64,000 nt of DNA from Bacilli bacterium (GTDB taxonomy: Bacteria > Bacillota_I > Bacilli_A > ML615J-28 > CAG-313), in NCBI GenBank assembly GCA_045653225.1, contig JAZOLP010000062.1, positions 908 through 64,907 of the forward strand. Reading direction: 5' to 3'. Numbering within the stretch: the first letter of the stretch is position 1; each line of letters starts with the position of its first letter. The position numbers and the translations under genes were made by a program. A model generated the notes under the pieces. The model saw only the letters and a program-made list of their open reading frames with translations, did not search any database and was not told where the DNA came from. Of the stretch, positions 35,224-64,000 are shown in pieces.

Positions 35224-35266
35224 AAGGGAGTCTTATATTTTATATAAGACTCCCTATTTTTTTTTA
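35224..35266. terminator. bidirectional terminator between the convergent modules: GGGAGTCTTATAT-ttta-ATATAAGACTCCC with T-tracts on both strands
   Basis: Perfect 13-bp stem flanked by runs of T on each strand. Confidence 0.65.
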
Positions 35267-35761: not shown

Positions 35762-36253
35762 CTAATTTGTCCTAGAAACTAAATATTTTCCAATACAAAT
35801 TGCATCACATTCATCTTGAATAACTTTAATGCCATATTCTTCTTTGATGTATCTTTGCGCGTCACGCTTTTGCTCGGTACGGTTTTTGCCTTTTATACCG
35901 AGCGCGCTCTTCCAAGTAGAAGACGGGACTATTTCATACGGAACCGACATTTCCGCGCACAATTCTAATAACAATGCTTGAACATAAGCAAGTTTTTTAA
36001 ATGTTGCTACATTAGTATCTTTTGAAGATCCAGGAATGTTTTGCAACTGAATTTCTTCTATTGCAACTAATAGCTTTCCACGAAACATTAATTCAGTTAT
36101 CTTATTTTTAATTTTGCTTTTGAGTTTAATAATTCTTGCAAACATTTCTCCTTCTGGGGAGAAGTGTTCCCAAGATTCTAGCTGACCATTGACAAATATT
36201 GCGATACCTGTAACTTGAGTACTTTGGTCAAGAGCTAAAATAATTTCATCCAT
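35762..36253 (-). CDS. ruvC: RuvC-family Holliday junction resolvase
   Basis: ILALDQSTQVTGIAIF N-terminal catalytic Asp motif; EEIQ glutamate; C-terminal DECDAICIG. Confidence 0.6.
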   Translation of the reverse strand: MDEIILALDQSTQVTGIAIFVNGQLESWEHFSPEGEMFARIIKLKSKIKNKITELMFRGKLLVAIEEIQLQNIPGSSKDTNVATFKKLAYVQALLLELCAEMSVPYEIVPSSTWKSALGIKGKNRTEQKRDAQRYIKEEYGIKVIQDECDAICIGKYLVSRTN

Positions 36254-36741
36254 TATTTTTTGCTACTTCCTAATTTTCCAGTTCCTCTTTCTGATTCTAT
36301 TTTCATTAAATCATCATAAGGAATTTCTTCAAACTGAACTTTAGGTGGTTCAATAAAAATAGCTTGAGCTATTGCTTTTTCGTATGGGTAAATAATATAG
36401 TGATGTTTTTCCCAAGTTTTATCTTCTATGTTTTTTAAAACTACAATAGGAAAATCATTAGTGTTTGTAATACCAACAAAAATTTCTCCTCTATACCCAG
36501 AATCAACAACTCCTGAGCGGAGTGCCATACCCTTAGCTCCTGTACTTCCTCTTTCGCGCAACAACATTACATAATCAGGTGAAAAGGCTGTCGCTAAACC
36601 AGTAGGAATTAGTTTTGTTTTATGCGGGAGTATAATAATATAATCTTCATCGAAGCAAGGATAAAGGTCAAATCCCGCATCTTCATCTCTTTTACTTGGT
36701 ATCTTTGCTTCTGGTCTTAATTTAGAAATCTGTACTTGCAT
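36253..36741 (-). CDS. dut: dUTP pyrophosphatase. The start is set at MQVQISK; the ORF track extends it to 36777.
   Basis: Motifs AGFDL, RSGxxxKG and GVVDSGYRGEI. Confidence 0.8.
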   Translation of the reverse strand: MQVQISKLRPEAKIPSKRDEDAGFDLYPCFDEDYIIILPHKTKLIPTGLATAFSPDYVMLLRERGSTGAKGMALRSGVVDSGYRGEIFVGITNTNDFPIVVLKNIEDKTWEKHHYIIYPYEKAIAQAIFIEPPKVQFEEIPYDDLMKIESERGTGKLGSSKK

Positions 36742-37000
36742 CTTCGTTATTCTCCATTCTTTGTTCGCAGTAAACATCTAAAGTAGAATTCATTGGGTCT
36801 TTTTCGTCATTAAATACAAGCTTAGCTGTAACCACATAATAAGTATCTACAACTGCACCTTTTTCTTTAACATCTTTTGTTTTGTAAGAAAAATTCTTTA
36901 ACTCTCCGTATCTATGCTTTTTAAGCTCTGCATGAAGTTCTTCTACTTCTGCTACACTACTCATTCTATATGTTGCACTATTTTCAATTAAATATTTCAT
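36722..37000 (-). CDS. hypothetical protein
   Basis: ORF track. Confidence 0.4.
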   Translation of the reverse strand: MKYLIENSATYRMSSVAEVEELHAELKKHRYGELKNFSYKTKDVKEKGAVVDTYYVVTAKLVFNDEKDPMNSTLDVYCEQRMENNEDASTDF

Positions 37001-37624: not shown

Positions 37625-38107
37625 TTAATTTGTTTTCAAACATTCGATAATTCTTTGATTAGCGCTTCCTCGCCATTTCAAAGTTAAATCTTTCTGTTCT
37701 TCGACAAAAGGTCCGTCTATTAAATAATTAATTTTTTCTAATATATTTGTTATATAGATATCTTTTTTAGACATTAATTCTTCTATTGTATATCCTGTCC
37801 AGAGGAATATTTTTATATCTGGATGCGCGGCCCGCACCTTAGAAATTAAATGCGAGACTTCTTTGCGATTTCTCGGATGGAGGGGCTCTCCGCCAAGTAT
37901 ACTTAGGTTACGCTGAATTCCATTAGCAACAAGCGCGTTAAATATTTCTTTTTCAGTAGCCTTTGTATAAACATTTCCGCTCTGAAAATTCCACGCAGCT
38001 TTATTAAAACAACCTGGGCACTGGTGTTCACATCCGCTAACAAAGAGGGAAACGCATATACCCTCTCCGTTAACTATATCATTTGGATTGATAATCATAT
38101 AATTCAT
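37625..38107 (-). CDS. nrdG: anaerobic ribonucleotide reductase activating protein (radical SAM)
   Basis: 160 aa; GCEHQCPGCFN CxxxCxxC cluster; near-collinear with E. coli NrdG, including WTGY and LKWRGS. Confidence 0.8.
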   Translation of the reverse strand: MNYMIINPNDIVNGEGICVSLFVSGCEHQCPGCFNKAAWNFQSGNVYTKATEKEIFNALVANGIQRNLSILGGEPLHPRNRKEVSHLISKVRAAHPDIKIFLWTGYTIEELMSKKDIYITNILEKINYLIDGPFVEEQKDLTLKWRGSANQRIIECLKTN

Positions 38108-38469
38108 TTTACAAAATCCTCCATAAAATATAAAGTGTTACAATATAAATTACATACGGGTAAGATAATTTGCTCAATTATTTCATCTGGTATCGTATCA
38201 TCTATAATGCATGTTTTTGCACGTAAACCGCGAACACTTTCAGTTGCTTTGTAAACTCTATATGTTGTATTTCCAATTTTTACTATTGGAAACATACTAT
38301 GTTTTCTTAAATATTCTCCTTGAACTGCTTTTAGAAAAAAATCTAAATTTTCTAAAGAAGAATAAAAAATTATATTTGATAAACTTTGATTGCCACAAGG
38401 TACATTTAAAGTTTTTCTTGGAGTATTAAAATATTCAGTAATTTTTTTTCTATTTAAATATCTTTCCAT
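38104..38469 (-). CDS. hypothetical protein. Its ATG forms a TAATG junction with the stop of the nrdD 3-prime remnant, and its end overlaps nrdG (ATGA).
   Basis: ORF track; reading-frame junctions. Confidence 0.4.
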   Translation of the reverse strand: MERYLNRKKITEYFNTPRKTLNVPCGNQSLSNIIFYSSLENLDFFLKAVQGEYLRKHSMFPIVKIGNTTYRVYKATESVRGLRAKTCIIDDTIPDEIIEQIILPVCNLYCNTLYFMEDFVK

Positions 38470-38518
38470 TAGTTAGTCACCTTCCAATATTTTACCCTCT
38501 CTTTCACTTCTGTTTGTT

Positions 38519-38550
38519 TGCCTTTGTTAAATGCAGTTGTGTAATTTCCT
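38519..38550. repeat. right copy of a 30-nt direct repeat flanking the pflB insertion. It encodes a duplicated nrdD C-terminal remnant ...[26 protein letters not shown].
   Basis: cctttgttaaatgcagttgtgtaatttcct matches 40828-40857 at 28 of 30 positions. The minus-strand translation reproduces the NrdD tail. Confidence 0.7.
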
Positions 38551-38592
38551 ATTAAGCAACCATTGTTATAGACAATGATTATATAATTTATT

Positions 38593-40788
38593 TTACAGCC
38601 CTCCATGAAATGTTCTGCTTAATATTTCTTGCTTTTGTTCTTTTGTTAGAGAATTAAACAGAACTGCATATCCACTAATTCTAATTGTTAAGTTTGGATA
38701 GCTTTCAGGGTGTTCAATAGCATCTTCTAATGTTTCTTTGTTAAACACATTTACATTAATATGATGTCCATTTTTTTCAAAATATCCATCTAAAATTGTA
38801 CACAAATTATTCACTTGTTCTTTTGTATTTTTACCAAGCACAGAAGGAATAATTGTAAACGTATTTGAAATACCGTCATCACAGAACTGATAAGGTATTT
38901 TCGCAACTGAATTTAAAGAGGCAAGAGCGCCATTTTCTTCTCTTCCGTGGAGTGGGTTCGCGCCAGGAGCAAATGGAGCATATGCCTTTCTACCATCTGG
39001 AGTTGCGCCAGTTTTCTTTCCGTACATAATATTAGATGTTATTGTAAGTATAGATAAAGTTGGTTTTGCGTTTCTATAAAGCCATTGTGCTTCTAAGAAA
39101 TACTTAAAATAAGTAGCAACTTGAAGCCCTAACGCATCTGATTCATCTATATCATTACCATATTTAGGAAAATCGCCTTCAATTTTAAAATCAATAGCAA
39201 TTCCTTCTTCATTTCTTATCGGTATTACTTTTGCGAATTTAATACTTGCTAAACTATCGGACATTACTGAATAGCCTGCAATACCAAAAGCCATTAATCT
39301 ATCTTCTAAATGAGTATCGTGTAGAGCCATTTGAATTGATTCATACGCATACTTATCGTGCATAAAATGAATTACATTATTTGCATCTGAATAAATTCTT
39401 GCCAATTCGCGCAATACATATAAATAATTTTCATAAACTTCTTTAAAATCAAGAGGAGATTTTGTTAATTTTGGAACACCTTTAATTACTAATTCTCCTG
39501 TTCTTTCGTCTTTACCCTCGTTAATTGCATATAATAGAGCCTTGGCTAAATTACATCTTGCACCGAAGAATTGCATTTGTTTACCAGTTTTCATCGCAGA
39601 AACGCAACAAGCAATAGAATAATCATTTCCATATTTTGGTCTCATTAAATCATCATTCTCATATTGAATTGCACAAGTCTTAATAGACATTTCTGCACAA
39701 TATTTTTTAAAGTTTTCAGGTAGCTTTTCGCTCCATAAAACAGTTAAATTTGGTTCTGGTGCCGCACCTAAATGCTCTAGCGCGTGTAAAAATCTAAAAG
39801 AAGTTTTTGTTACTAATGATTGTTCATCGTTAAGCATACCACCTATTGCTTCAGTTACCCAAGTAGGATCTCCTGCGAATAATTCATCATAAGCAGAAGT
39901 GCGCAAATGACGAATAAATCTTAATTTTATAATAAACTGATCTATTAACTCTTGAGCTTCTTGCTCGGATATAATATCATTTTTTAAATCATTCTCAATA
40001 TAAATATCAATAAAAGTTGATACTCTGCCGAGAGAGGTTGCCGCGCCATTACTTTCTTTTGCACCAGCAAGATAAGCAAAATAAATTGCTTGAATTGCGT
40101 CTCTCGCGTTTGTAGCTGGCTTGTTAATCATAATACCATATCTGGCCGCCATTGTTGTTAATTCGCGCAATGCTTTAATTTGCATAGATACTTCTTCTCT
40201 TAATTGTATATCACGCATATCTAAATTTGCAAAATCTTTTTGCTTTTGTTCGATTAAATAATCTGTGCCATAAAGTGCTACTCTGCGATAGTCTCCTATG
40301 ATGCGGCCGCGTCCATAGGCATCTGGTAAGCCAGTTATTAACCCATTGTGTCTAGCTTTAAGAACTTCTTCTGAATAAGCATCAAATACTCCTTCATTAT
40401 GAGTTTTTCTAAATTGGTGAAACAAATCTAATTCATAAGGAGTTGTTAAATCGTGTTCTCGCAAACATTGCTTAACCATTCTTATTCCACCGTATGGGTT
40501 AATGATTCTTTTAAGTGGGGTATCTGTTTGAAGCCCCACTATTACTTCATTATCTTTATCTATATAGCCAGGTTGAAAATTATCTATTCCAGAAAACGCT
40601 TCTGTTTCAATATCTAATACTCCACCTGCTTCTTGTTCTTGTCTTAATAAATCTTTACATTTATCCCATAATTTTTGAGTTTTTTCTGTTATTGGTTGAA
40701 GAAAACTACTGTCTCCTAAATATTCAGTATAATTATTCTCAATAAATTTATTTACATTAATAGACATTGATTTTCCTCCTTTTCTCAA
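38593..40788 (-). CDS. pflB: pyruvate formate-lyase (formate C-acetyltransferase, glycyl radical enzyme)
   Basis: 731 aa, near-collinear with E. coli PflB. Active-site IACCVS is present, followed by [24 protein letters not shown]. The C-terminal glycyl-radical motif is [40 protein letters not shown] is also present. Confidence 0.85.
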
Positions 40789-41753
40789 AATTTATGTTTT
40801 ACTCTTAATTCTGTTTCTTGAACTTTTCCTTTATTAAATGCAGTTGTATAATTTCCTGTCAAATAACCTGTTACTCTTCTTAACTGTTGAATGTGTTCAC
40901 TACCGCACACAGGGCAGTATTTATTAAACTCGTCTAAATATCCACAATCCAAGCAAGCGTCATTTGGGACATTGATCGCGAAATAAGGTATATCCTTGTC
41001 CATAGCATAATTTATAATTTGCTCAATTGCAGATAAGTTATTTTTAACACTACCATCTAACTCTACATAAGTAATACATCCCGCACTTGAATAACCAGTT
41101 AATTGAGATTCTATGTCAATTTTATCAAATGGTGACATTTCTTTCCAAACTGGAACATGCATCGAATTAGTAAAGAATGCTTTATCACTAACATTTTCGA
41201 TTACTCCATATTTATCTTTAAATTTTTGCATAGCAGTAAAACAAAGATTTTCTGCAGGAGTATAATATACACCAAAGTTAAGTTTATACTCTTCTTTGAA
41301 TGAAGCGCATTTATCTTTAAATAATTGTTCAATTCTTTTAGCCAATACCATACCCTCTTCAGTTGTATGGTCTGTACCAATTAAAATTTGAAGTGTTTCC
41401 GCAAGACCAAGTTGCCCAATCGCAAGAGTTCCGTGTTTGAGTGCGCTTCTAATTCCCTCTTCTGGCACATAACCAGCCATTAAATTATTTTCATACATAA
41501 ATTTGGCTGAGTCTGGACTTTGCGAACAAATATATTCAAATCTTTCTAATAAGATGTCTTTTGCGTCGTGAATTTTTCTATTTAAAAGATTTAAGAATAC
41601 TACTTCTAAATCTTCTTCTTGTCCTTCTTCCTCACACATTTCTTTAGCCATCATAGCCAATGTAGGAAGAATAATTGTTACAGGACATATATTACCTCTA
41701 CCATCTTTAAGCTGGCCAAAACCATTAATATCCCAGCCGTTTGCCGTTCTGCA
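40785..41753 (-). CDS. nrdD: anaerobic ribonucleoside-triphosphate reductase, exon 2 (C-terminal part, beginning CRTANGWD)
   Basis: C-terminal Zn ribbon CLDCG...CPVCG and glycyl-radical motif RRVTGYLTG. The conserved MGCR motif is reconstituted only when joined to exon 1. Confidence 0.75.
40828..40857. repeat. left copy of the 30-nt direct repeat. It lies inside the intact nrdD 3-prime end and encodes [11 protein letters not shown].
   Basis: See the paired repeat at 38519-38550. Confidence 0.7.
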
Positions 41754-42575
41754 CATGTTAATCCGATGTTACCATCGGCACTGACTATATCTTCTCCAAT
41801 TATTTGGAGTCTTCCGCTTCGAATGTGCGCCTATCTCACATTCTACTCCCTTACATTCATCAGGGATAGTCGATACACTTTATTCATTATAATATTCAAA
41901 AATCCAAGTATTTTTATATGGACTTTTTACTTGTCCATTGAGTCGAGTGGTAATAGAAGTTTTTCCATTTTGTATTCCGCAGGCTCTGGCGCAACCAATT
42001 ACTGTATCGAAAATATCAACTTCATTTGTAATTATATTGGTTCGTTTGACTTTTTGAGCCATCGGGTTTTTCCCACCCAATTTTGTTTGTCTAATTTTTT
42101 CTTTAATTTCATTCATTTCTTCATCTGTTTTAGAAAGATATGTATTTCCACCGCATTTATAAATAGCGCTAGTTTCATTATATCCCTCTTTAACAGCATT
42201 ATAAAATTGAATCCAATATTGCTCTTTGAAATTTAATTCTTCTTGATTTTCTGCTGTATCAATTTCTTCTATAACAAAATTTTCTTTGCCGTATTTTCTA
42301 ATTGCTCGAGCAAAATGCGTATCAAGAATGTTATTTAATGCGTCATTTATATGACGATGAAATCTTGCTTCGATAGGCCTAATACTTTGACCTATATATA
42401 CTTTGTTGTTTTGAATATTTGTAATTTTATATATCCACATAGAAACTCCTTTCTATTGAATATTATAATGAATCTTAGCACGGTCTCATCCACGTGGGAC
42501 CTAACCGTTAGCCCGCAATCGCGGACACCCTCGGGCGAGGTTCAAAAGATTTTACATGGGCTGTAGTTTTCACTT
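41754..42575 (-). mobile_element. group I intron (822 nt) interrupting nrdD, carrying a GIY-YIG homing endonuclease ORF
   Basis: In-frame junction ...ATG GGT | intron | TGC AGA... The exon ends in U and the intron ends in G. GC-rich structured segments flank the ORF at both ends, with GACTA in the 3-prime part. There is an internal RBS for the endonuclease. The split falls exactly in the conserved NrdD MG|CR motif. Confidence 0.7.
41880..42440 (-). CDS. GIY-YIG homing endonuclease encoded within the intron
   Basis: WIYKITNIQNNKVYIGQS GIY-YIG motif; downstream R, H and N catalytic residues; basic C-terminal DNA-binding region. Confidence 0.75.
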   Translation of the reverse strand: MWIYKITNIQNNKVYIGQSIRPIEARFHRHINDALNNILDTHFARAIRKYGKENFVIEEIDTAENQEELNFKEQYWIQFYNAVKEGYNETSAIYKCGGNTYLSKTDEEMNEIKEKIRQTKLGGKNPMAQKVKRTNIITNEVDIFDTVIGCARACGIQNGKTSITTRLNGQVKSPYKNTWIFEYYNE

Positions 42576-43829
42576 ACCCATTGTGCTCATATATGTTCTA
42601 GGGTCGTCAGGATCGTATCCAGCATTGCCGCTCCAATCTACATTACAGTAATTTGGATATAATCTTGTTGCAGTTGATTTAAGAGCCAACTGATATAAAT
42701 CATAATTAGGGGTACCTGGTTTATCATTTACACCTTTCATATATTGAAAAATTTGACAAGGGAAAACAGATGTTCTATGCGATTTTCCAAGTCCTTCAAT
42801 TGTTCCTTCTAAAATAGCTTTTGTAACCATTCTTCCCTCAACTAGAGTACAAGTACCATAGTTAATTGAACTAAATGGAAGCTGATTTCCGCTACGAGAT
42901 TGTAAAGTATTAAGATTATGAAGCATACCTTCAACTGCTTGTTTTAATTCTCTTTCTGTCATATCCATAGCATATATATAAACATTTGGAAAATAATTTA
43001 TATAACATTCGTTAAATATAGAAGTTTCATTTGTTACGTAGTTAAATACTACTGCATCATACGGATTTTCAAACATTTCAATATATTTTAAACCATCCAC
43101 ATAGTGCTTATAGAAACTTTTTCTTACATACGGAACCATACTCCAATCCAAGTGAGAACAACTTACACCGCCAAACTGTTGTAAACTTTGTATCTGAAAA
43201 ATAACTGCCAATAGTTGAAATGCTGTATTGATTGAACTTGCGGGGCGCACATCTGTTTGTCTCGTATTGAAACCATTCGCAAGTAAATGATCAATAGGAA
43301 CAGTTAAACAGTTATGATTACCAAGTACATATTGATCTAGGTCGTGAGTATAAATTTTATTATTAAGATGATTATCTTTTGTTTTTTTGCTTACTAAATA
43401 ATTTAAAGCGTAGTCTTTATTCATTACGCTCGCGGCTTCGCCATTTCTTCCACCGAAAGATTTTTCATCTACATTTGCATTTTGATTTTTAATATCTTGT
43501 GCTTGAAGCTTTTTACCTATCTCTTTATGTAACGCGCTTTTCGCATTACGAGCAATACTTCTTTTTTCTCTATATATAATATAAGCTTTTGCAACATCTA
43601 ATCTTTCACTTTGCATAAGCTTTTGCTCAACTAAATCTTGTATTTTTTCTATATCCCAATCACTTACATAGTGAGTATATTCTTCATAGATTTCTTCTGC
43701 GATATCTTGAGCAATTTCCTCTGAATAAATTTGTCCATCTACTTCTTCAAAAGCTTTATTTATTGCTTTTATAATATTGTCTTTACAAAACTCTACAAGA
43801 GTTCCGTCTCTTTTAATTATCATCTTCAT
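42576..43829 (-). CDS. nrdD: anaerobic ribonucleoside-triphosphate reductase, exon 1 (N-terminal part with an ATP-cone). The ORF track runs on to a stop at 42570 inside the intron.
   Basis: IIKRDGTLVEFCKDNIIKAI ATP-cone; the exon ends ...YMSTMG. Confidence 0.75.
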
Positions 43830-43894: not shown

Positions 43895-44485
43895 TTAGAT
43901 TGTCCATTCTTGCCCACAGAGAACAGTATCAATTTGGTGAATGGTATCGGAAAATTCCCAGCGTGTGTTATTTTTGAACTTCGACACGATTGGGAATTCG
44001 TCTTCATTTTCTGTGATTTGAAAATCTGCTTTGTCAGTAGAAAATCTTCTAATAATTTCTTCAATATCTGGATTTTCTTCTCTGCTAAGCTGACGAATTA
44101 ATCTTTCTTTGTCTGTTGCTTCAATATAAGCAACTTTTAAATCGATTCTGTCGTCCCAACTTAGTATTTGAATACCCTCTGGGTTTAACACAAGTAAATT
44201 AATTTTTTCTTCATCTAAAGACATAATTGGAGTACCATAGGCCCAATTATTAAAACAAGTTGCTTCAAGCATTCTATTGTTATCTAATTCTCTTAAAAAG
44301 GTTTCAGGAGTTAAAAAATGATAATCAACTCCATTAACTTCTCCCTCTCTTGGAGGTCGAGTAGTCGCGGAAACTACTCGATTAAATTTATGCGGTCTAA
44401 GCTTTAATAATTCTTTAGCTATTGTATCTTTTCCGCTTCCCGCTTTGCCCATAATAGCTAAAACTTTAAGCTTCTTCATCTTCAT
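43895..44485 (-). CDS. gmk: guanylate (nucleoside monophosphate) kinase
   Basis: P-loop GKAGSGKDT; GMP-binding signature SATTRPPREGEVNGVDYHF. Confidence 0.7.
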   Translation of the reverse strand: MKMKKLKVLAIMGKAGSGKDTIAKELLKLRPHKFNRVVSATTRPPREGEVNGVDYHFLTPETFLRELDNNRMLEATCFNNWAYGTPIMSLDEEKINLLVLNPEGIQILSWDDRIDLKVAYIEATDKERLIRQLSREENPDIEEIIRRFSTDKADFQITENEDEFPIVSKFKNNTRWEFSDTIHQIDTVLCGQEWTI

Positions 44486-58943: not shown

Positions 58944-59603
58944 TCAACTGTTTTTACAAGAATGCTTTTCAGGACAATATCCAAGATATTTACATTTTGG
59001 AACAAAGTATTTTGTTACGCAATATTGCCACTGAGCAGAATAATCTGATAAAGCTGTTTCTATATCATCAAACAAGTCTCTAAATTCCCAAAAGGCACGT
59101 TGACATTTTCTTTGATGAGACATATCTATTAAATTGCGGAGATTGGTTCTAATAACTACTTTTGTAGTCATACCAAGAGGAAGTAACATTGAAGCATCCT
59201 CTTTGGTAAATCCAATAGCCTCTAAATTTTTAACAGCTTCTGAAATATAGCTCATGCATCTGTCATAAATTTCTAAAGCTGCTTGATTTTCATAGAGTTT
59301 TGGCGGTGTCACATACTCAAAATTTCCATACTCAATATATCTTGTGCTGGCTTGTAATCGAGTTGGAGAACCACCAATGTGAGTATATAGCTCACGAATT
59401 ACTTTTGCACTATATCCTTCTAATATGATATATACTTGCGGATATTCAGATACTCTACCGTGTTGAGATTCTAAACAATCTAATCCACGCAAATAATTTT
59501 TTTCACTATCAGAAGTATCTGCACCCCAGCAAGTACCAGCCATTTCACCCATAAGAGTAATTGGGTTAATAGTGGTCGCGGGATGTACTGTTATTTTACC
59601 CAT
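58944..59603 (-). CDS. thyX: flavin-dependent thymidylate synthase ThyX-like
   Basis: 219 aa; a ...SPTRLQASTRY segment resembling the ThyX S-x-RY motif; nucleotide-metabolism context. Confidence 0.45.
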   Translation of the reverse strand: MGKITVHPATTINPITLMGEMAGTCWGADTSDSEKNYLRGLDCLESQHGRVSEYPQVYIILEGYSAKVIRELYTHIGGSPTRLQASTRYIEYGNFEYVTPPKLYENQAALEIYDRCMSYISEAVKNLEAIGFTKEDASMLLPLGMTTKVVIRTNLRNLIDMSHQRKCQRAFWEFRDLFDDIETALSDYSAQWQYCVTKYFVPKCKYLGYCPEKHSCKNS

Positions 59604-60628
59604 TATCCGTTTCCTCCTGTAACATTATATCCCCAATTTTTTGAATCAAAGTATTCAATCCAAAATTTTTCTCTTTCGTTTAAATCTGCTCTCGCGCATT
59701 CTTCAATTAATTCAAAAGAGAAATTCTCTACACCTTTTTCCCAAAGGGCGGGATATAACTTATTATTAAGCGGGGTCTCTGCGTGTAATCCTCTCTTAAT
59801 GTGTTGTTTCCATCTATCTGCGAGAGAAACGCATTGCCCAATATAAATTCTTCCTGATTCGATGTCTTGAATTTTATAAATACCAGTAGTAGGTTTAGAA
59901 ATTTGTCTACCTATTAAATCATTAGTAGGCTTTTCAAAATAAGTTTTCCAAATAAGCTTATTTAAAACCTCTTTATTGTTTAACTTTTCTGATAATTCGC
60001 GCAACTTATTAATATCTTCTAAATCTTGTTGCGGAATTTGTAGCCTAAAAAATTCTGACTGGGTTCTTTTCTTTTCTTCGCGTTTCAAATCTTCTTGAGC
60101 AGCGGCCGCGAGTGTCTGATATTTATTTAACTCAATTTTTGCTTCGTTTATTTTATTTATTTCAAGATTCATATTGTTAGATAAAGCAATTGCAGCATCT
60201 TTCATTATACTTGAATATTCATTATAAAAATCATTTTTTGCATTTTCTAAATCATTTTTCAATTCTTCTTTTGCTTTTTCTATTTTTTCTTTTTCAAAAC
60301 TTATCTTGTCTTGATAGTTTTTATCTGCTTGTTGACATAATTGAGTTAAATGAATTATTTTCTGATCTAATATTTCAGATTCTGTTTCTTTTTTATCACA
60401 AGTATTTTTAATGTTAATTAAATGTTGTTCAGCTTCTAAATTATAAGCATCAAGCTCAGCTAAACGAATTTCTTTATAAGAAATTTCTTTATTTAATTCA
60501 TTTATTGTGCTTTTTGTGATTTTTAATTTTGGTCTTAATATTAAATAGGTTCCACCTATTCCCAGACCAATTCCAAATATTAGTAATATTATTGTCATAG
60601 ATAAAAAAATAAGAGGTAGTAGAAGCAC
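59603..60628 (-). CDS. membrane-anchored coiled-coil protein with a C-terminal GIY-YIG nuclease domain
   Basis: N-terminal TM segment LLPLIFLSMTIILLIFGIGLGIGGTYLIL; about 200 aa of coiled coil; C-terminal GIYKIQDIESGRIYIGQ...R...H...E...N. Confidence 0.6.
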   Translation of the reverse strand: MLLLPLIFLSMTIILLIFGIGLGIGGTYLILRPKLKITKSTINELNKEISYKEIRLAELDAYNLEAEQHLINIKNTCDKKETESEILDQKIIHLTQLCQQADKNYQDKISFEKEKIEKAKEELKNDLENAKNDFYNEYSSIMKDAAIALSNNMNLEINKINEAKIELNKYQTLAAAAQEDLKREEKKRTQSEFFRLQIPQQDLEDINKLRELSEKLNNKEVLNKLIWKTYFEKPTNDLIGRQISKPTTGIYKIQDIESGRIYIGQCVSLADRWKQHIKRGLHAETPLNNKLYPALWEKGVENFSFELIEECARADLNEREKFWIEYFDSKNWGYNVTGGNG

Positions 60629-62443: not shown

Positions 62444-64000
62444 TCAAATCTTGGATACTGAGACAATGTCTCCTTCTATCGCGTTGACTCCTTGAGTGTT
62501 GCGGCCGGCCGCAGGTATGTCTTTAGCAAGAATACAAAGTGACTTATGTGAACCGATTATTAATATTTCATCATTATCATCAACAAGTAAAGTACCTACA
62601 AGATTTGCGTTTTTATGAGAAATTAAACCTTTTCCGCCTTTTGATTGAATTGGAAATTCTTTTAATGGAGTTTTTTTACACATTCCGTTGGCGGTAAATG
62701 TAGCTAAATAATCACTATCGTGTTTAATTGGAAGAGCATCAATGACATAGTCATCATTTCCTAAGTTAATACCTTTCACGCCTTTTGCGATTCTTGAAGA
62801 AGCACCTAAATCTTTTAACGAAAAGCGCAATGATTGAGCTTTATTTGTGGTTATAATTAAATCTTCTTCATTTGCAAAAGTAACTTTAGTTAAAATATCT
62901 CCTTCTTTAAGAGTAATAGCTATAATACCATTTTTTCTTTTTGAAGCAAATTCATCTAAATTTACTTTTTTTACGATACCTTGTTTTGTAATAAACACAA
63001 CATATTTAGCTTCTGTATTTCTATATAAATTAGAAACTGCCATTATTTCTTCGTCGGTTTCTAAATTAATTAAAGTGTTTAAATGAGTACCTTTCGCGGT
63101 ATTTGTACCAATAGGTAAGTCATTAACTAATACATTATATGCTTTACATTTAGAAGTAAATACCATAAGTGTATCTATAGTATTCGTTTTAAATACCCAT
63201 TTAGTATTATCTTCTTGTACTTTAACTCCTTTTCCACCGCGTCTTTGAGTGCGGAAAGATGTTTTTGGAATTCTTTTTGCGTATCCTTTTGAGCTAATGC
63301 AAACTACAACATCTTCTGGAGTTACATTTGCAATCTCTTTTTCCTCTTTTGTTGTTTCTGCAAGTTGAACCAAATCTGTCTTTCTAGCATCACCATACTT
63401 TTTAACGAGTGTTTCAAGTCTTTTTCTTAATTCTGGAATAGGATTATCGTGTATTTCTTTTAAAGTAATTAACAAAGCTCTTAATTCTTCTGCTTCGTTT
63501 TGTAATTCAGCTTTCTCCAATTTAGCTAATTTGGATAATTTCATATCTAAAATAGCCTTAGCTTGTTCTTCAGAGAATCCCCATTTATTTTTAAGAGTTT
63601 CTTTAGCAGCGGCCGCCGATTCAGATTTCTTAATCATTGCGATAATTTCATCTATTATATCTAAAGCTTTAAATAAGCCCTCTATAATATGAAGTCTTTG
63701 CTCAGTTTTCTTAATATCAAAAGACACTTCTCTTACAATGCATTTTGAATTATAATCAACATATATTTTAATACAATCCTTTAAGTTTAACTCTGTTGGA
63801 GTTTTATCTACTAATGCAACTTGATTATAAGAAAAGCTTGATTGTAAACTTGTCTTAGCAAAAAGATTTGTAATTATTGTATTGATTGGAGTGTTTTTAT
63901 CGCATTCAATTACTAATCTAAAACCTTTTTTATTACTTTCATTTCTAATATCTAAAATACCAGACAATTCTTCTTTATCACATAATTCTCCAATTTGAGA
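62444..64000 (-). CDS. gyrA: type IIA topoisomerase A subunit (GyrA/ParC-like), C-terminal two thirds. The 5-prime end lies beyond the window. The Met at 63967 in the ORF track is an internal TTG codon.
   Basis: ILDIRNESNKKGFRLVIE resembles the GyrA EIRDESDREGMRIVIE segment. SEEQAKAILDMKLSKLAKLE is present. The C-terminal beta-pinwheel repeats have GxKG motifs. The frame stays open to the window edge. Confidence 0.65.
   Translation of the reverse strand, partial: SQIGELCDKEELSGILDIRNESNKKGFRLVIECDKNTPINTIITNLFAKTSLQSSFSYNQVALVDKTPTELNLKDCIKIYVDYNSKCIVREVSFDIKKTEQRLHIIEGLFKALDIIDEIIAMIKKSESAAAAKETLKNKWGFSEEQAKAILDMKLSKLAKLEKAELQNEAEELRALLITLKEIHDNPIPELRKRLETLVKKYGDARKTDLVQLAETTKEEKEIANVTPEDVVVCISSKGYAKRIPKTSFRTQRRGGKGVKVQEDNTKWVFKTNTIDTLMVFTSKCKAYNVLVNDLPIGTNTAKGTHLNTLINLETDEEIMAVSNLYRNTEAKYVVFITKQGIVKKVNLDEFASKRKNGIIAITLKEGDILTKVTFANEEDLIITTNKAQSLRFSLKDLGASSRIAKGVKGINLGNDDYVIDALPIKHDSDYLATFTANGMCKKTPLKEFPIQSKGGKGLISHKNANLVGTLLVDDNDEILIIGSHKSLCILAKDIPAAGRNTQGVNAIEGDIVSVSKI

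Follow-up and report, generated by a model that had tools for sequence, protein, structure and literature searches.

Glycyl-radical enzymes are thought to need an activase of their own, and how tightly enzyme and activase have to match is poorly known. Two of these enzymes are of concern here. Pyruvate formate-lyase (PFL) is encoded in bacteria by pflB, together with pflA for its activase, in fermentation loci with focA. Class III ribonucleotide reductase (RNR) is encoded by nrdD, together with nrdG for its activase, as in phage T4, Lactococcus lactis and Prevotella copri. The NrdDs that require formate lack the third cysteine on the sixth strand, the position being Asn435 in the P. copri enzyme, for which the formate requirement has been shown experimentally (PMC11226230). 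The link from PFL through formate to NrdD has been recognised for anaerobic cells (PMC4390871). In this work we deal with a PFL gene found in a 64-kb stretch of contig JAZOLP010000062.1 (the window, by which we mean the whole stretch of DNA that was analysed). The window is phage DNA, and its pfl gene lies in a predicted operon between nrdD and nrdG. On balance we lean towards reading this operon as an anaerobic module for deoxyribonucleoside triphosphates (dNTPs) that would supply its own reductant and whose PFL would most likely be activated by the PflA of the host.

The two genes on which the argument turns are the following.

38593..40767, minus strand: pyruvate formate-lyase (formate C-acetyltransferase), 724 aa, recognised by Pfam, TIGR01255 and an alignment of catalytic residues.
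37625..38107, minus strand: NrdG, the radical S-adenosylmethionine (SAM) activase of class III RNR, 160 aa, recognised by TIGR02491, phrog_626 and the motif CEHQCPGC.

The presence of a PFL, as claimed by the original prediction, is borne out by the Pfam matches (PFL-like, E 1.6e-186; Gly_radical, E 1.5e-37), by the NCBIfam formate C-acetyltransferase equivalog TIGR01255 (1065.5 bits, with a cutoff of 994.2) and by the catalytic residues: Cys418, Cys419, Gly734, Arg176, Arg435, Trp333 and Phe432 are all retained in an alignment to the PflB of Escherichia coli and Staphylococcus aureus. The protein thus appears catalytically intact, as judged from its sequence. The open reading frame (ORF) extends over 38593-40788 on the minus strand; the better start is the ATG at 40767, which has the AAAGGAGG ribosome-binding site and gives 724 aa, matching the length of the homologues. 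This start lies 17 nt past the nrdD stop and is preceded by a GGAGG ribosome-binding site. The glycine loop reads RISGYAV, one conservative change from RVSGYAV, and in an alignment of 17 PFLs, mostly from phages, the R, S, G, Y, A and V of the loop are invariant, as are 270 columns overall. The PflBs of E. coli and S. aureus are 55-58% identical to the phage PFL, and the PFLs of Clostridia no more than 66%. The ratio of nonsynonymous to synonymous substitution rates (dN/dS) against the 96%-identical PFL of contig L249 is 0.06, which indicates purifying selection, and the GC content at third codon positions (GC3) is 0.19, the same as in the other genes of the phage. Full-length PFL matches in a phage collection were mostly unverified or fragmentary records; they were taken as host DNA and are not used as evidence here.

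Like the bacterial pflB product, the phage enzyme belongs to the TIGR01255 equivalog and has the Cys-Cys pair and a near-identical glycine loop. Unlike in bacteria, pfl comes without pflA, and where bacteria have a fermentation locus with focA the phage gene is part of a class III RNR operon. The phage PFLs are also slightly shorter, with 720-741 aa compared to 742-760 aa.

NrdG is encoded on the same strand and in the same transcription unit as nrdD. Its ORF scores 177.9 bits with TIGR02491 (cutoff 126.1), whereas with the PflA model TIGR02493 it reaches only 21.9 bits (cutoff 231.75); it lacks the C-terminal half of PflA and aligns to PflA residues 15-82 only. A scan for the CxxxCxxC motif in the six frames of the window, covering every stop-to-stop ORF from 50 aa upwards, found only that of NrdG. 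A tblastn search of the window with PflA of E. coli and S. aureus likewise returned only NrdG (E 0.001-0.003), with all other matches at E 0.1 or higher. The two further claims made earlier, that the only radical-SAM protein is of the 160-aa NrdG type and that no PflA is present, therefore hold, the second one for these 64 kb.

The PFL gene is found in the middle of what we predict to be a conserved phage operon, gmk-nrdD-pfl-(small orf)-nrdG-...-dut-ruvC, whose outer members in the window are the following.

43895..44485, minus strand: guanylate kinase, the upstream neighbour (Pfam Guanylate_kin, E 2.5e-24), in the same place in contigs L085-L088, L254 and L255.
36253..36777, minus strand: dUTPase, a downstream member of the nucleotide-metabolism block (Pfam dUTPase and synteny), followed by RuvC in the relatives.

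No terminator-like site was found on the minus strand from 44000 to 37215. PFLs that are 65-96% identical to that of the window were obtained as a family by a protein search, and the genomic context was inspected for eight of them. Six are further gut phage contigs of 24-181 kb (L085, L086, L087, L088, L254 and L255), with PFLs 67-74% identical, which share the nrdD-pfl-nrdG core. In all six the block consists of DnaE, gmk, nrdD, pfl, an NrdG of 162-166 aa, three small ORFs, dut and RuvC, with the stop of pfl adjoining or overlapping the start of nrdG. These contigs were read up to 10 kb on either side of the PFL, and within that distance none of the six has a PflA. The seventh context is that of a 96%-identical PFL, found on two short contigs where nrdD tail, pfl, small ORF and nrdG follow one another. 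The eighth is bacterial: a 66%-identical PFL with a 239-aa PflA directly upstream.

Bacteria keep the two genes together. We sampled the 80 bacterial loci whose PFLs are most similar to that of the window, mostly from Clostridia and Bacilli, and PflA lies within 4 kb in 77 of them (full-length in 75, damaged or truncated in 2). Among 32 viral contigs with a PFL in IMG/VR, an adjacent PflA occurs in 3, which have a bacterial-looking layout, and 27, including contigs of 220-233 kb, have no activase in the flanks available (10 kb on both sides for about 9 of them); the other 2 are L107 and L119, described below. Having PFL without PflA thus appears to be the rule in phages. When IMG/VR was scanned for PflA patterns, the full-length protein turned up on about 9 contigs; only 3 of these also have a PFL, with PflA adjacent to it, and none is a large PFL phage contig. 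As the scan relies on two conserved peptide motifs, a divergent PflA could escape it.

These observations bear on another explanation, namely that the phage encodes a PflA elsewhere in its genome, outside the window. The related contigs measure 99-181 kb, and from those of 99-106 kb we estimate that the genome is at least 100 kb long and that 40 kb of it lie outside the 64-kb window; with a gyrA ORF at its right edge, the window does not end with the genome. However, a PflA is missing within 10 kb of PFL in all six relatives, although in bacteria the two genes are almost always adjacent, and the few viral contigs that have both carry them side by side, with no large PFL phage contig among those on which a full-length PflA was found. 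We therefore think a distant phage PflA very unlikely.

The neighbourhood of PFL and class III RNR is not restricted to this clade of phages. In L107 and L119, an unrelated phage lineage whose NrdD is 25-30% identical, PFL sequences come right after nrdD-nrdG, so PFL sequences beside nrdD-nrdG appear to have arisen at least twice. The layout in this lineage is peculiar: in L119 (9995-12267), and alike in L107, a stand-alone GrcA-like radical domain of 77 aa (RVSGYAV) precedes a PFL body without a radical domain, which is broken into ORFs of 267 and 345 aa and may be a split, permuted or decaying PFL. In L118 (10001-12228) the PFL body comes first and a separate radical-domain piece follows. 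In bacteria, the metagenome-assembled contig CAMEKZ010000036.1 of an uncultured Clostridia member (L226) has nrdD about 1 kb upstream of pfl-pflA, so that the same neighbourhood occurs there too, if rarely (1 of the 80 loci).

If the PFL is there for the sake of the RNR, the type of NrdD matters. In the window the gene was found as two ORFs, one of 419 aa with the ATP-cone and the first half, and one of 323 aa with the second half and the glycyl-radical end. They can be accounted for as the exons of one gene.

42576..43829, minus strand: nrdD exon 1, with the ATP-cone and the N-terminal half of class III RNR, ending in ...STMG before the finger-loop Cys (Pfam ATP-cone and NRDD).
41754..42575, minus strand: predicted group I intron of 822 nt in nrdD, between the Gly and Cys codons of MGCRT (splice-site rules, stem and homologues).
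41880-42440, minus strand: ORF of a GIY-YIG homing endonuclease within the intron, 186 aa (Pfam GIY-YIG).
40785..41753, minus strand: nrdD exon 2, the functional 3' end of the gene (Pfam NRDD and Gly_radical, and the alignment to P. copri NrdD).

The upstream exon ends in ATGGGT and the downstream one begins with TGCAGA, so that MGCRT is regained around the catalytic cysteine once the insert is taken out. A U precedes the 5' splice site, the exon sequence AUGGGU pairs with GCCCAU of the intron (42556-42561, 14 nt in), and the last base of the intron is G. A perfect 18-bp stem (42456-42473 with 41882-41899) loops out the endonuclease ORF. Homologous introns of 270-331 nt that lack this ORF occur at the same site in L019, L037, L063 and L068, and they show compensatory changes in the 3' hairpin as well as a conserved AGATATAGTCAGT element. 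Rfam gave no match to the intron of the window or to the ORF-less copies. The assignment of the insert as a group I intron is therefore a well supported prediction, not formally proven.

Exon 2 contains the catalytic Cys, an Asn replacing the third Cys, a Zn ribbon (CLDCGY...CPVCGS) and the glycyl-radical loop RRVTGYLT. The predicted spliced protein, in which STMG is joined to CRTANG, has 740 aa and aligns over residues 3-738 to P. copri NrdD (PDB 8P23, E 1.2e-124), with Cys under both Cys171 and Cys416 of P. copri and Asn under Asn435. Its match to the NrdD of Thermotoga maritima, a member of the NrdD2 group (PMC4493059), is weak (E 1.5e-11). The protein thus has a Cys on strand 1, the Cys of the finger loop and an Asn at the place of the third Cys of thioredoxin-type enzymes. 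By this signature, the phage NrdD would be of the formate-requiring type (NrdD1).

Our preferred reading of the operon, which goes beyond the original prediction in drawing on the gene context and on the formate link, can then be put in the following way. PFL would split pyruvate and CoA into acetyl-CoA and formate and, the NrdD being predicted to require formate, it would supply the reductant that NrdD oxidises to CO2 for each dNTP made. Acetyl-CoA for ATP and one-carbon units might come as side benefits. NrdG would put the glycyl radical on NrdD, and PFL would receive its own from the host's PflA, which could act on the retained PflA-type loop RISGYAV. PflA acts catalytically, so the phage would have to bring only the consumable enzyme. 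The formate module is favoured by the recurrence of the nrdD-pfl-nrdG order, with PFL sequences right after nrdD-nrdG in the second lineage of L107 and L119, by the low dN/dS of 0.06, by the GC3 match and by the surroundings of the block, which are genes of nucleotide metabolism (gmk, dut, thyX, ligase and helicases) with no terminator-like site to interrupt it.

As for the activase, we think that it is probably the host PflA, for several reasons. The Gly loop is strictly of the PflA type across the 17 PFLs aligned, and known activase specificity follows the loop: the E. coli PFL activase accepts the peptide RVSGYAV and not the RNR loop, and the cross-activation known so far is confined to enzymes with the same loop (PMC13450708). 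Most other PFL phages carry no nearby activase either. Many phages have nrdD without nrdG (PMC3653736), which we read as reliance on a host activase. Moreover, the NrdGs found beside PFL form no separate group. Finally, SPbeta-like phages, the group to which this phage seems to belong, infect Bacillota, and the sampled bacterial PFL loci carry PflA in 77 of 80 cases.

The original prediction rightly posed the choice between the host PflA and another activase, the phage NrdG itself, which would have to act with dual specificity on NrdD (RVTGYLT) and PFL (RISGYAV). This would make the module self-sufficient and portable even to hosts that lack PflA. The position of pfl between nrdD and nrdG in every clade member examined, with its stop abutting or overlapping the nrdG start in the relatives, is what such sharing would look like, and the L107/L119 lineage also has PFL sequences beside nrdD-nrdG. 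Furthermore, bacterial pfl travels with pflA (77 of 80 loci), whereas the phage took or kept pfl only, as the lack of PflA up to 10 kb away in the six relatives illustrates. Activase specificity has also been little studied (PMC13450708).

A residue next to the loop could be taken as a trace of a different partner. Residue 703 of the PFL (window ~38659-38661), four positions after the radical Gly, is an unusual Leu, shared by 71 of the 120 closest PFLs (P0001-P0120), mostly of this clade; in the bacterial loci the residue is Asn, Arg or His in 77 of 80 and Leu in 1. Clade member L255 (PFL P0022) has His at this place. We rejected the Leu as an adaptation, since it goes back to a single inherited change and this member of the clade lacks it.

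Other evidence also counts against a shared NrdG. It is an ordinary 160-aa member of TIGR02491 without the C-terminal half of PflA, and the PFL loop, RISGYAV, shows no drift towards the RVTGYLT of NrdD. A PFL-specific NrdG subfamily was considered and rejected, as a neighbour-joining tree interleaves the NrdGs of phages with and without PFL; the NrdG of the window is 52% identical to that of the PFL-carrying L085 and 51% identical to that of the PFL-less L011. E. coli pflA mutants have no PFL activity although the cells possess NrdG. Recorded cross-reactivity stays, as said above, among enzymes with the same loop, and other PFL phages have no activase near the gene. Altogether, we consider activation by NrdG unlikely.

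The junction between pfl and nrdG gives information on the recent history of the locus. Two features are found there.

38469..38569, minus strand: non-functional second copy of the last ~29 nrdD codons, a recombination scar (direct repeat and collinearity with L251).
38104..38469, minus strand: orf121, an ORF with no function assigned, in a variable slot upstream of nrdG, with its stop overlapping the nrdG start (ATGA).

The scar makes the longest direct repeat of the region, 38487-38561 against 40794-40868 (75 nt, 72% identical). In the PFL-less Logan contig L251 (1441-1549) the native nrdD tail stands directly before orf121, and the scar is collinear with this tail, as it is with L029, L015 and L020. 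L251 is 88% identical to the window in DNA from 38562 to 28832 (9.8 kb) and 76% upstream of 38562, and in it an uninterrupted nrdD runs straight into orf121 and nrdG, without PFL. The PFL and nrdG of the window, for their part, are 90-92% identical in DNA to those of the PFL-carrying L249. Therefore, the window is a mosaic of PFL-less and PFL-carrying phages, in which a patch with an nrdD tail and orf121 from a PFL-less relative appears to have taken the place of the small ORF that lay between pfl and nrdG. The orf121 product matches no Pfam or PHROG family; it has homologues at 89-93% identity, including one of 92.6% in L251, and weak homologues directly after nrdD in L029, L015, L016 and L020. 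L249 has a different ORF of 89 aa in its place. The slot as a whole (window 38104-38469; L249 2367-2636; L029 9071-9340) holds unrelated or barely related ORFs of 121, 89 and 90 aa, which share a C-terminal ...IP.C..Y... motif and belong to no known family.

From the PFL-less close relative and the scar it follows that PFL behaves as an accessory gene that varies among related phages. This part of the suggestion in the original prediction that the PFL is recently captured cargo can be retained, given a relative without PFL at 88% nucleotide identity over 9.8 kb. For the clade as a whole, recent capture does not fit: the gene order is conserved among PFLs 67-74% identical, GC3 is phage-like and dN/dS is 0.06. 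A stronger version, in which PFL would be carried along passively or be in decay, of no use to the phage, might likewise invoke the close relative without PFL, the mosaic junction and the homing endonucleases that crowd the neighbourhood. We give it almost no credence, in view of the same dN/dS, the intact catalytic residues, the 270 columns invariant in 17 sequences and the conserved operon coupling.

The place of the gene has a further aspect. In 80 IMG/VR relatives with NrdDs 69-81% identical there is no PFL, and in most of them nrdG comes directly after nrdD. Unrelated DNA of 1-2 kb is inserted between nrdD and nrdG in about 20 of these 80, and nrdD is interrupted at several sites. Among the PFL-carrying phages, L254 (6219-9745) has its nrdD split into ORFs of 307 and 382 aa, and a gene for a LAGLIDADG-type endonuclease between nrdD and pfl.

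With such insertions in mind, PFL could serve general fermentation and one-carbon metabolism (ATP, and 10-formyltetrahydrofolate leading to purines and thymidylate), its adjacency to nrdD being an effect of a recombination hot spot. The same block includes ThyX and other nucleotide genes, most viral PFLs of IMG/VR are not beside nrdD, and virome surveys class PFL as a fermentation auxiliary gene (PMC13644194). Yet the position is conserved down to 67% PFL identity, an unrelated lineage also has PFL sequences beside nrdD-nrdG, and the NrdD belongs by its signature to the type that consumes formate stoichiometrically. We regard this general role as a contender, but on the whole unlikely; it and the supply of NrdD are not mutually exclusive.

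Several points weigh against the formate module with host PflA. The first one is that the host PflA is an assumption, as there are no tRNAs, no recognisable lysin and no close cultured relative to point to a host. Second, a host with PflA normally has PflB as well and makes formate by itself; what a phage copy would add is then a matter of the usual auxiliary-gene argument. Third, PFL lies between a glycyl-radical enzyme and an activase and in the relatives is translationally coupled to nrdG, which also has the look of a shared activase. Fourth, the relatives were read over only 10 kb on each side, in addition to the estimated 40 kb of genome beyond the window. Fifth, we infer the formate coupling from enzyme class and gene order, and the nrdD-nrdG junction is a general insertion hot spot, so position by itself is weak functional evidence.

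The phage nature of the window can be seen from its organisation. A structural block on the plus strand and a block for replication and nucleotide metabolism on the minus strand converge at 35225-35255. This site is a perfect 14-bp hairpin with T-runs on either side, between the converging blocks, and is likely a strong bidirectional terminator. The minus-strand block contains gyrA, ligase, thyX, DnaB, RecJ, a superfamily 1 (SF1) helicase, a YorL-type DnaE, gmk, dut and a RuvC-like gene. The closest cultured relatives are SPbeta-like phages of Bacillota, with 38-49% protein identity (TerL, DnaE), and the phage is probably a member of this group. A megablast search of the locus and 24 kb of the window against INPHARED returned no related phage, and neither a lookup of the exact NrdG protein nor a scan of IMG/VR with an exact 51-mer gave a match. 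There are no tRNA genes in the window, and no lysin or other host-specific domain was found among the ten ORFs scanned in the structural region. With 66% as the highest identity to any bacterial PFL, neither a donor nor a host can be named.

The window uses the standard genetic code. In some relatives, L029, L020, L015, L016 and the PFL-carrying L086, TAG codons stand in frame where NrdD has conserved Gln residues, and reading TAG as sense roughly doubles the long ORFs, which points to recoding of TAG to Gln. L082 looks TGA-recoded, and the DNA of L087 and L254 does not yield their PFL under table 11. Two more genes of the window show signs of mobile elements. The GyrA-like ORF at 62444-63967 (minus strand) begins at about position 248 of the topoisomerase profile, with a stop codon just upstream, inside the window, so that gyrA may also be split by an intron or homing endonuclease. 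A 341-aa ORF at 59603-60628 (minus strand), with a C-terminal GIY-YIG domain, abuts thyX (58944-59603) and is probably a free-standing homing endonuclease.

We think that this clade can be seen as a natural experiment, in which a complete PFL has been kept for long, under strong purifying selection, beside an RNR-type activase only. If the host PflA is indeed the activase, a virus would be bringing the consumable enzyme and borrowing the catalytic maturase, and this would be the first genomic evidence found of phages securing formate for anaerobic RNR. If instead NrdG does it, this would be the first demonstration of one activase for two enzyme families, a matter of relevance to the engineering of glycyl-radical chemistry. 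In both cases, three genes suffice to test the metabolic link between PFL and class III RNR that has long been noted. In the literature searched there was no description of an nrdD-pfl-nrdG operon, of a formate-NrdD link in phages or of the question of the missing activase.

It remains to compare the locus with the other systems known. With the class III RNRs of T4, L. lactis and P. copri it shares the ATP-cone, the finger-loop Cys, the Asn in place of the third Cys, the Zn ribbon, the C-terminal glycyl radical and an NrdG of ~155 aa. T4 has in nrdD a group I intron with a GIY-YIG endonuclease, comparable to the one predicted here though at a different site, and also an insertion between nrdD and nrdG, in that case the homing-endonuclease gene mobC. 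A further parallel in gene order with T4, through a GrcA-like gene, was dropped, as this gene is absent from the 16 kb around T4 nrdD-nrdG. None of the three systems has what is found here between nrdD and nrdG, a complete second glycyl-radical enzyme that would make the reductant of NrdD.

A precedent for a PFL-type glycyl-radical domain encoded by phages without PflA is given by GrcA/YfiD and the T4 protein Y06I. For more than 1500 phage records, mostly T4-like, the match to the PFL is confined to its last ~75 residues (phrog_1209). Wagner and colleagues are said to have found in 2001 that the host PFL activase activates Y06I. These proteins are spare parts of roughly 60-130 aa that repair host PFL cut by oxygen, whereas here there is a whole enzyme of 724 aa. 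PFL has, moreover, already been listed on phage contigs in virome surveys (PMC13644194; phrog_21327), which treat it as a fermentation gene. It is as a system that the present case is unusual, with an enzyme of fermentation separated from the activase that belongs to it and placed within the class III RNR operon of a phage.

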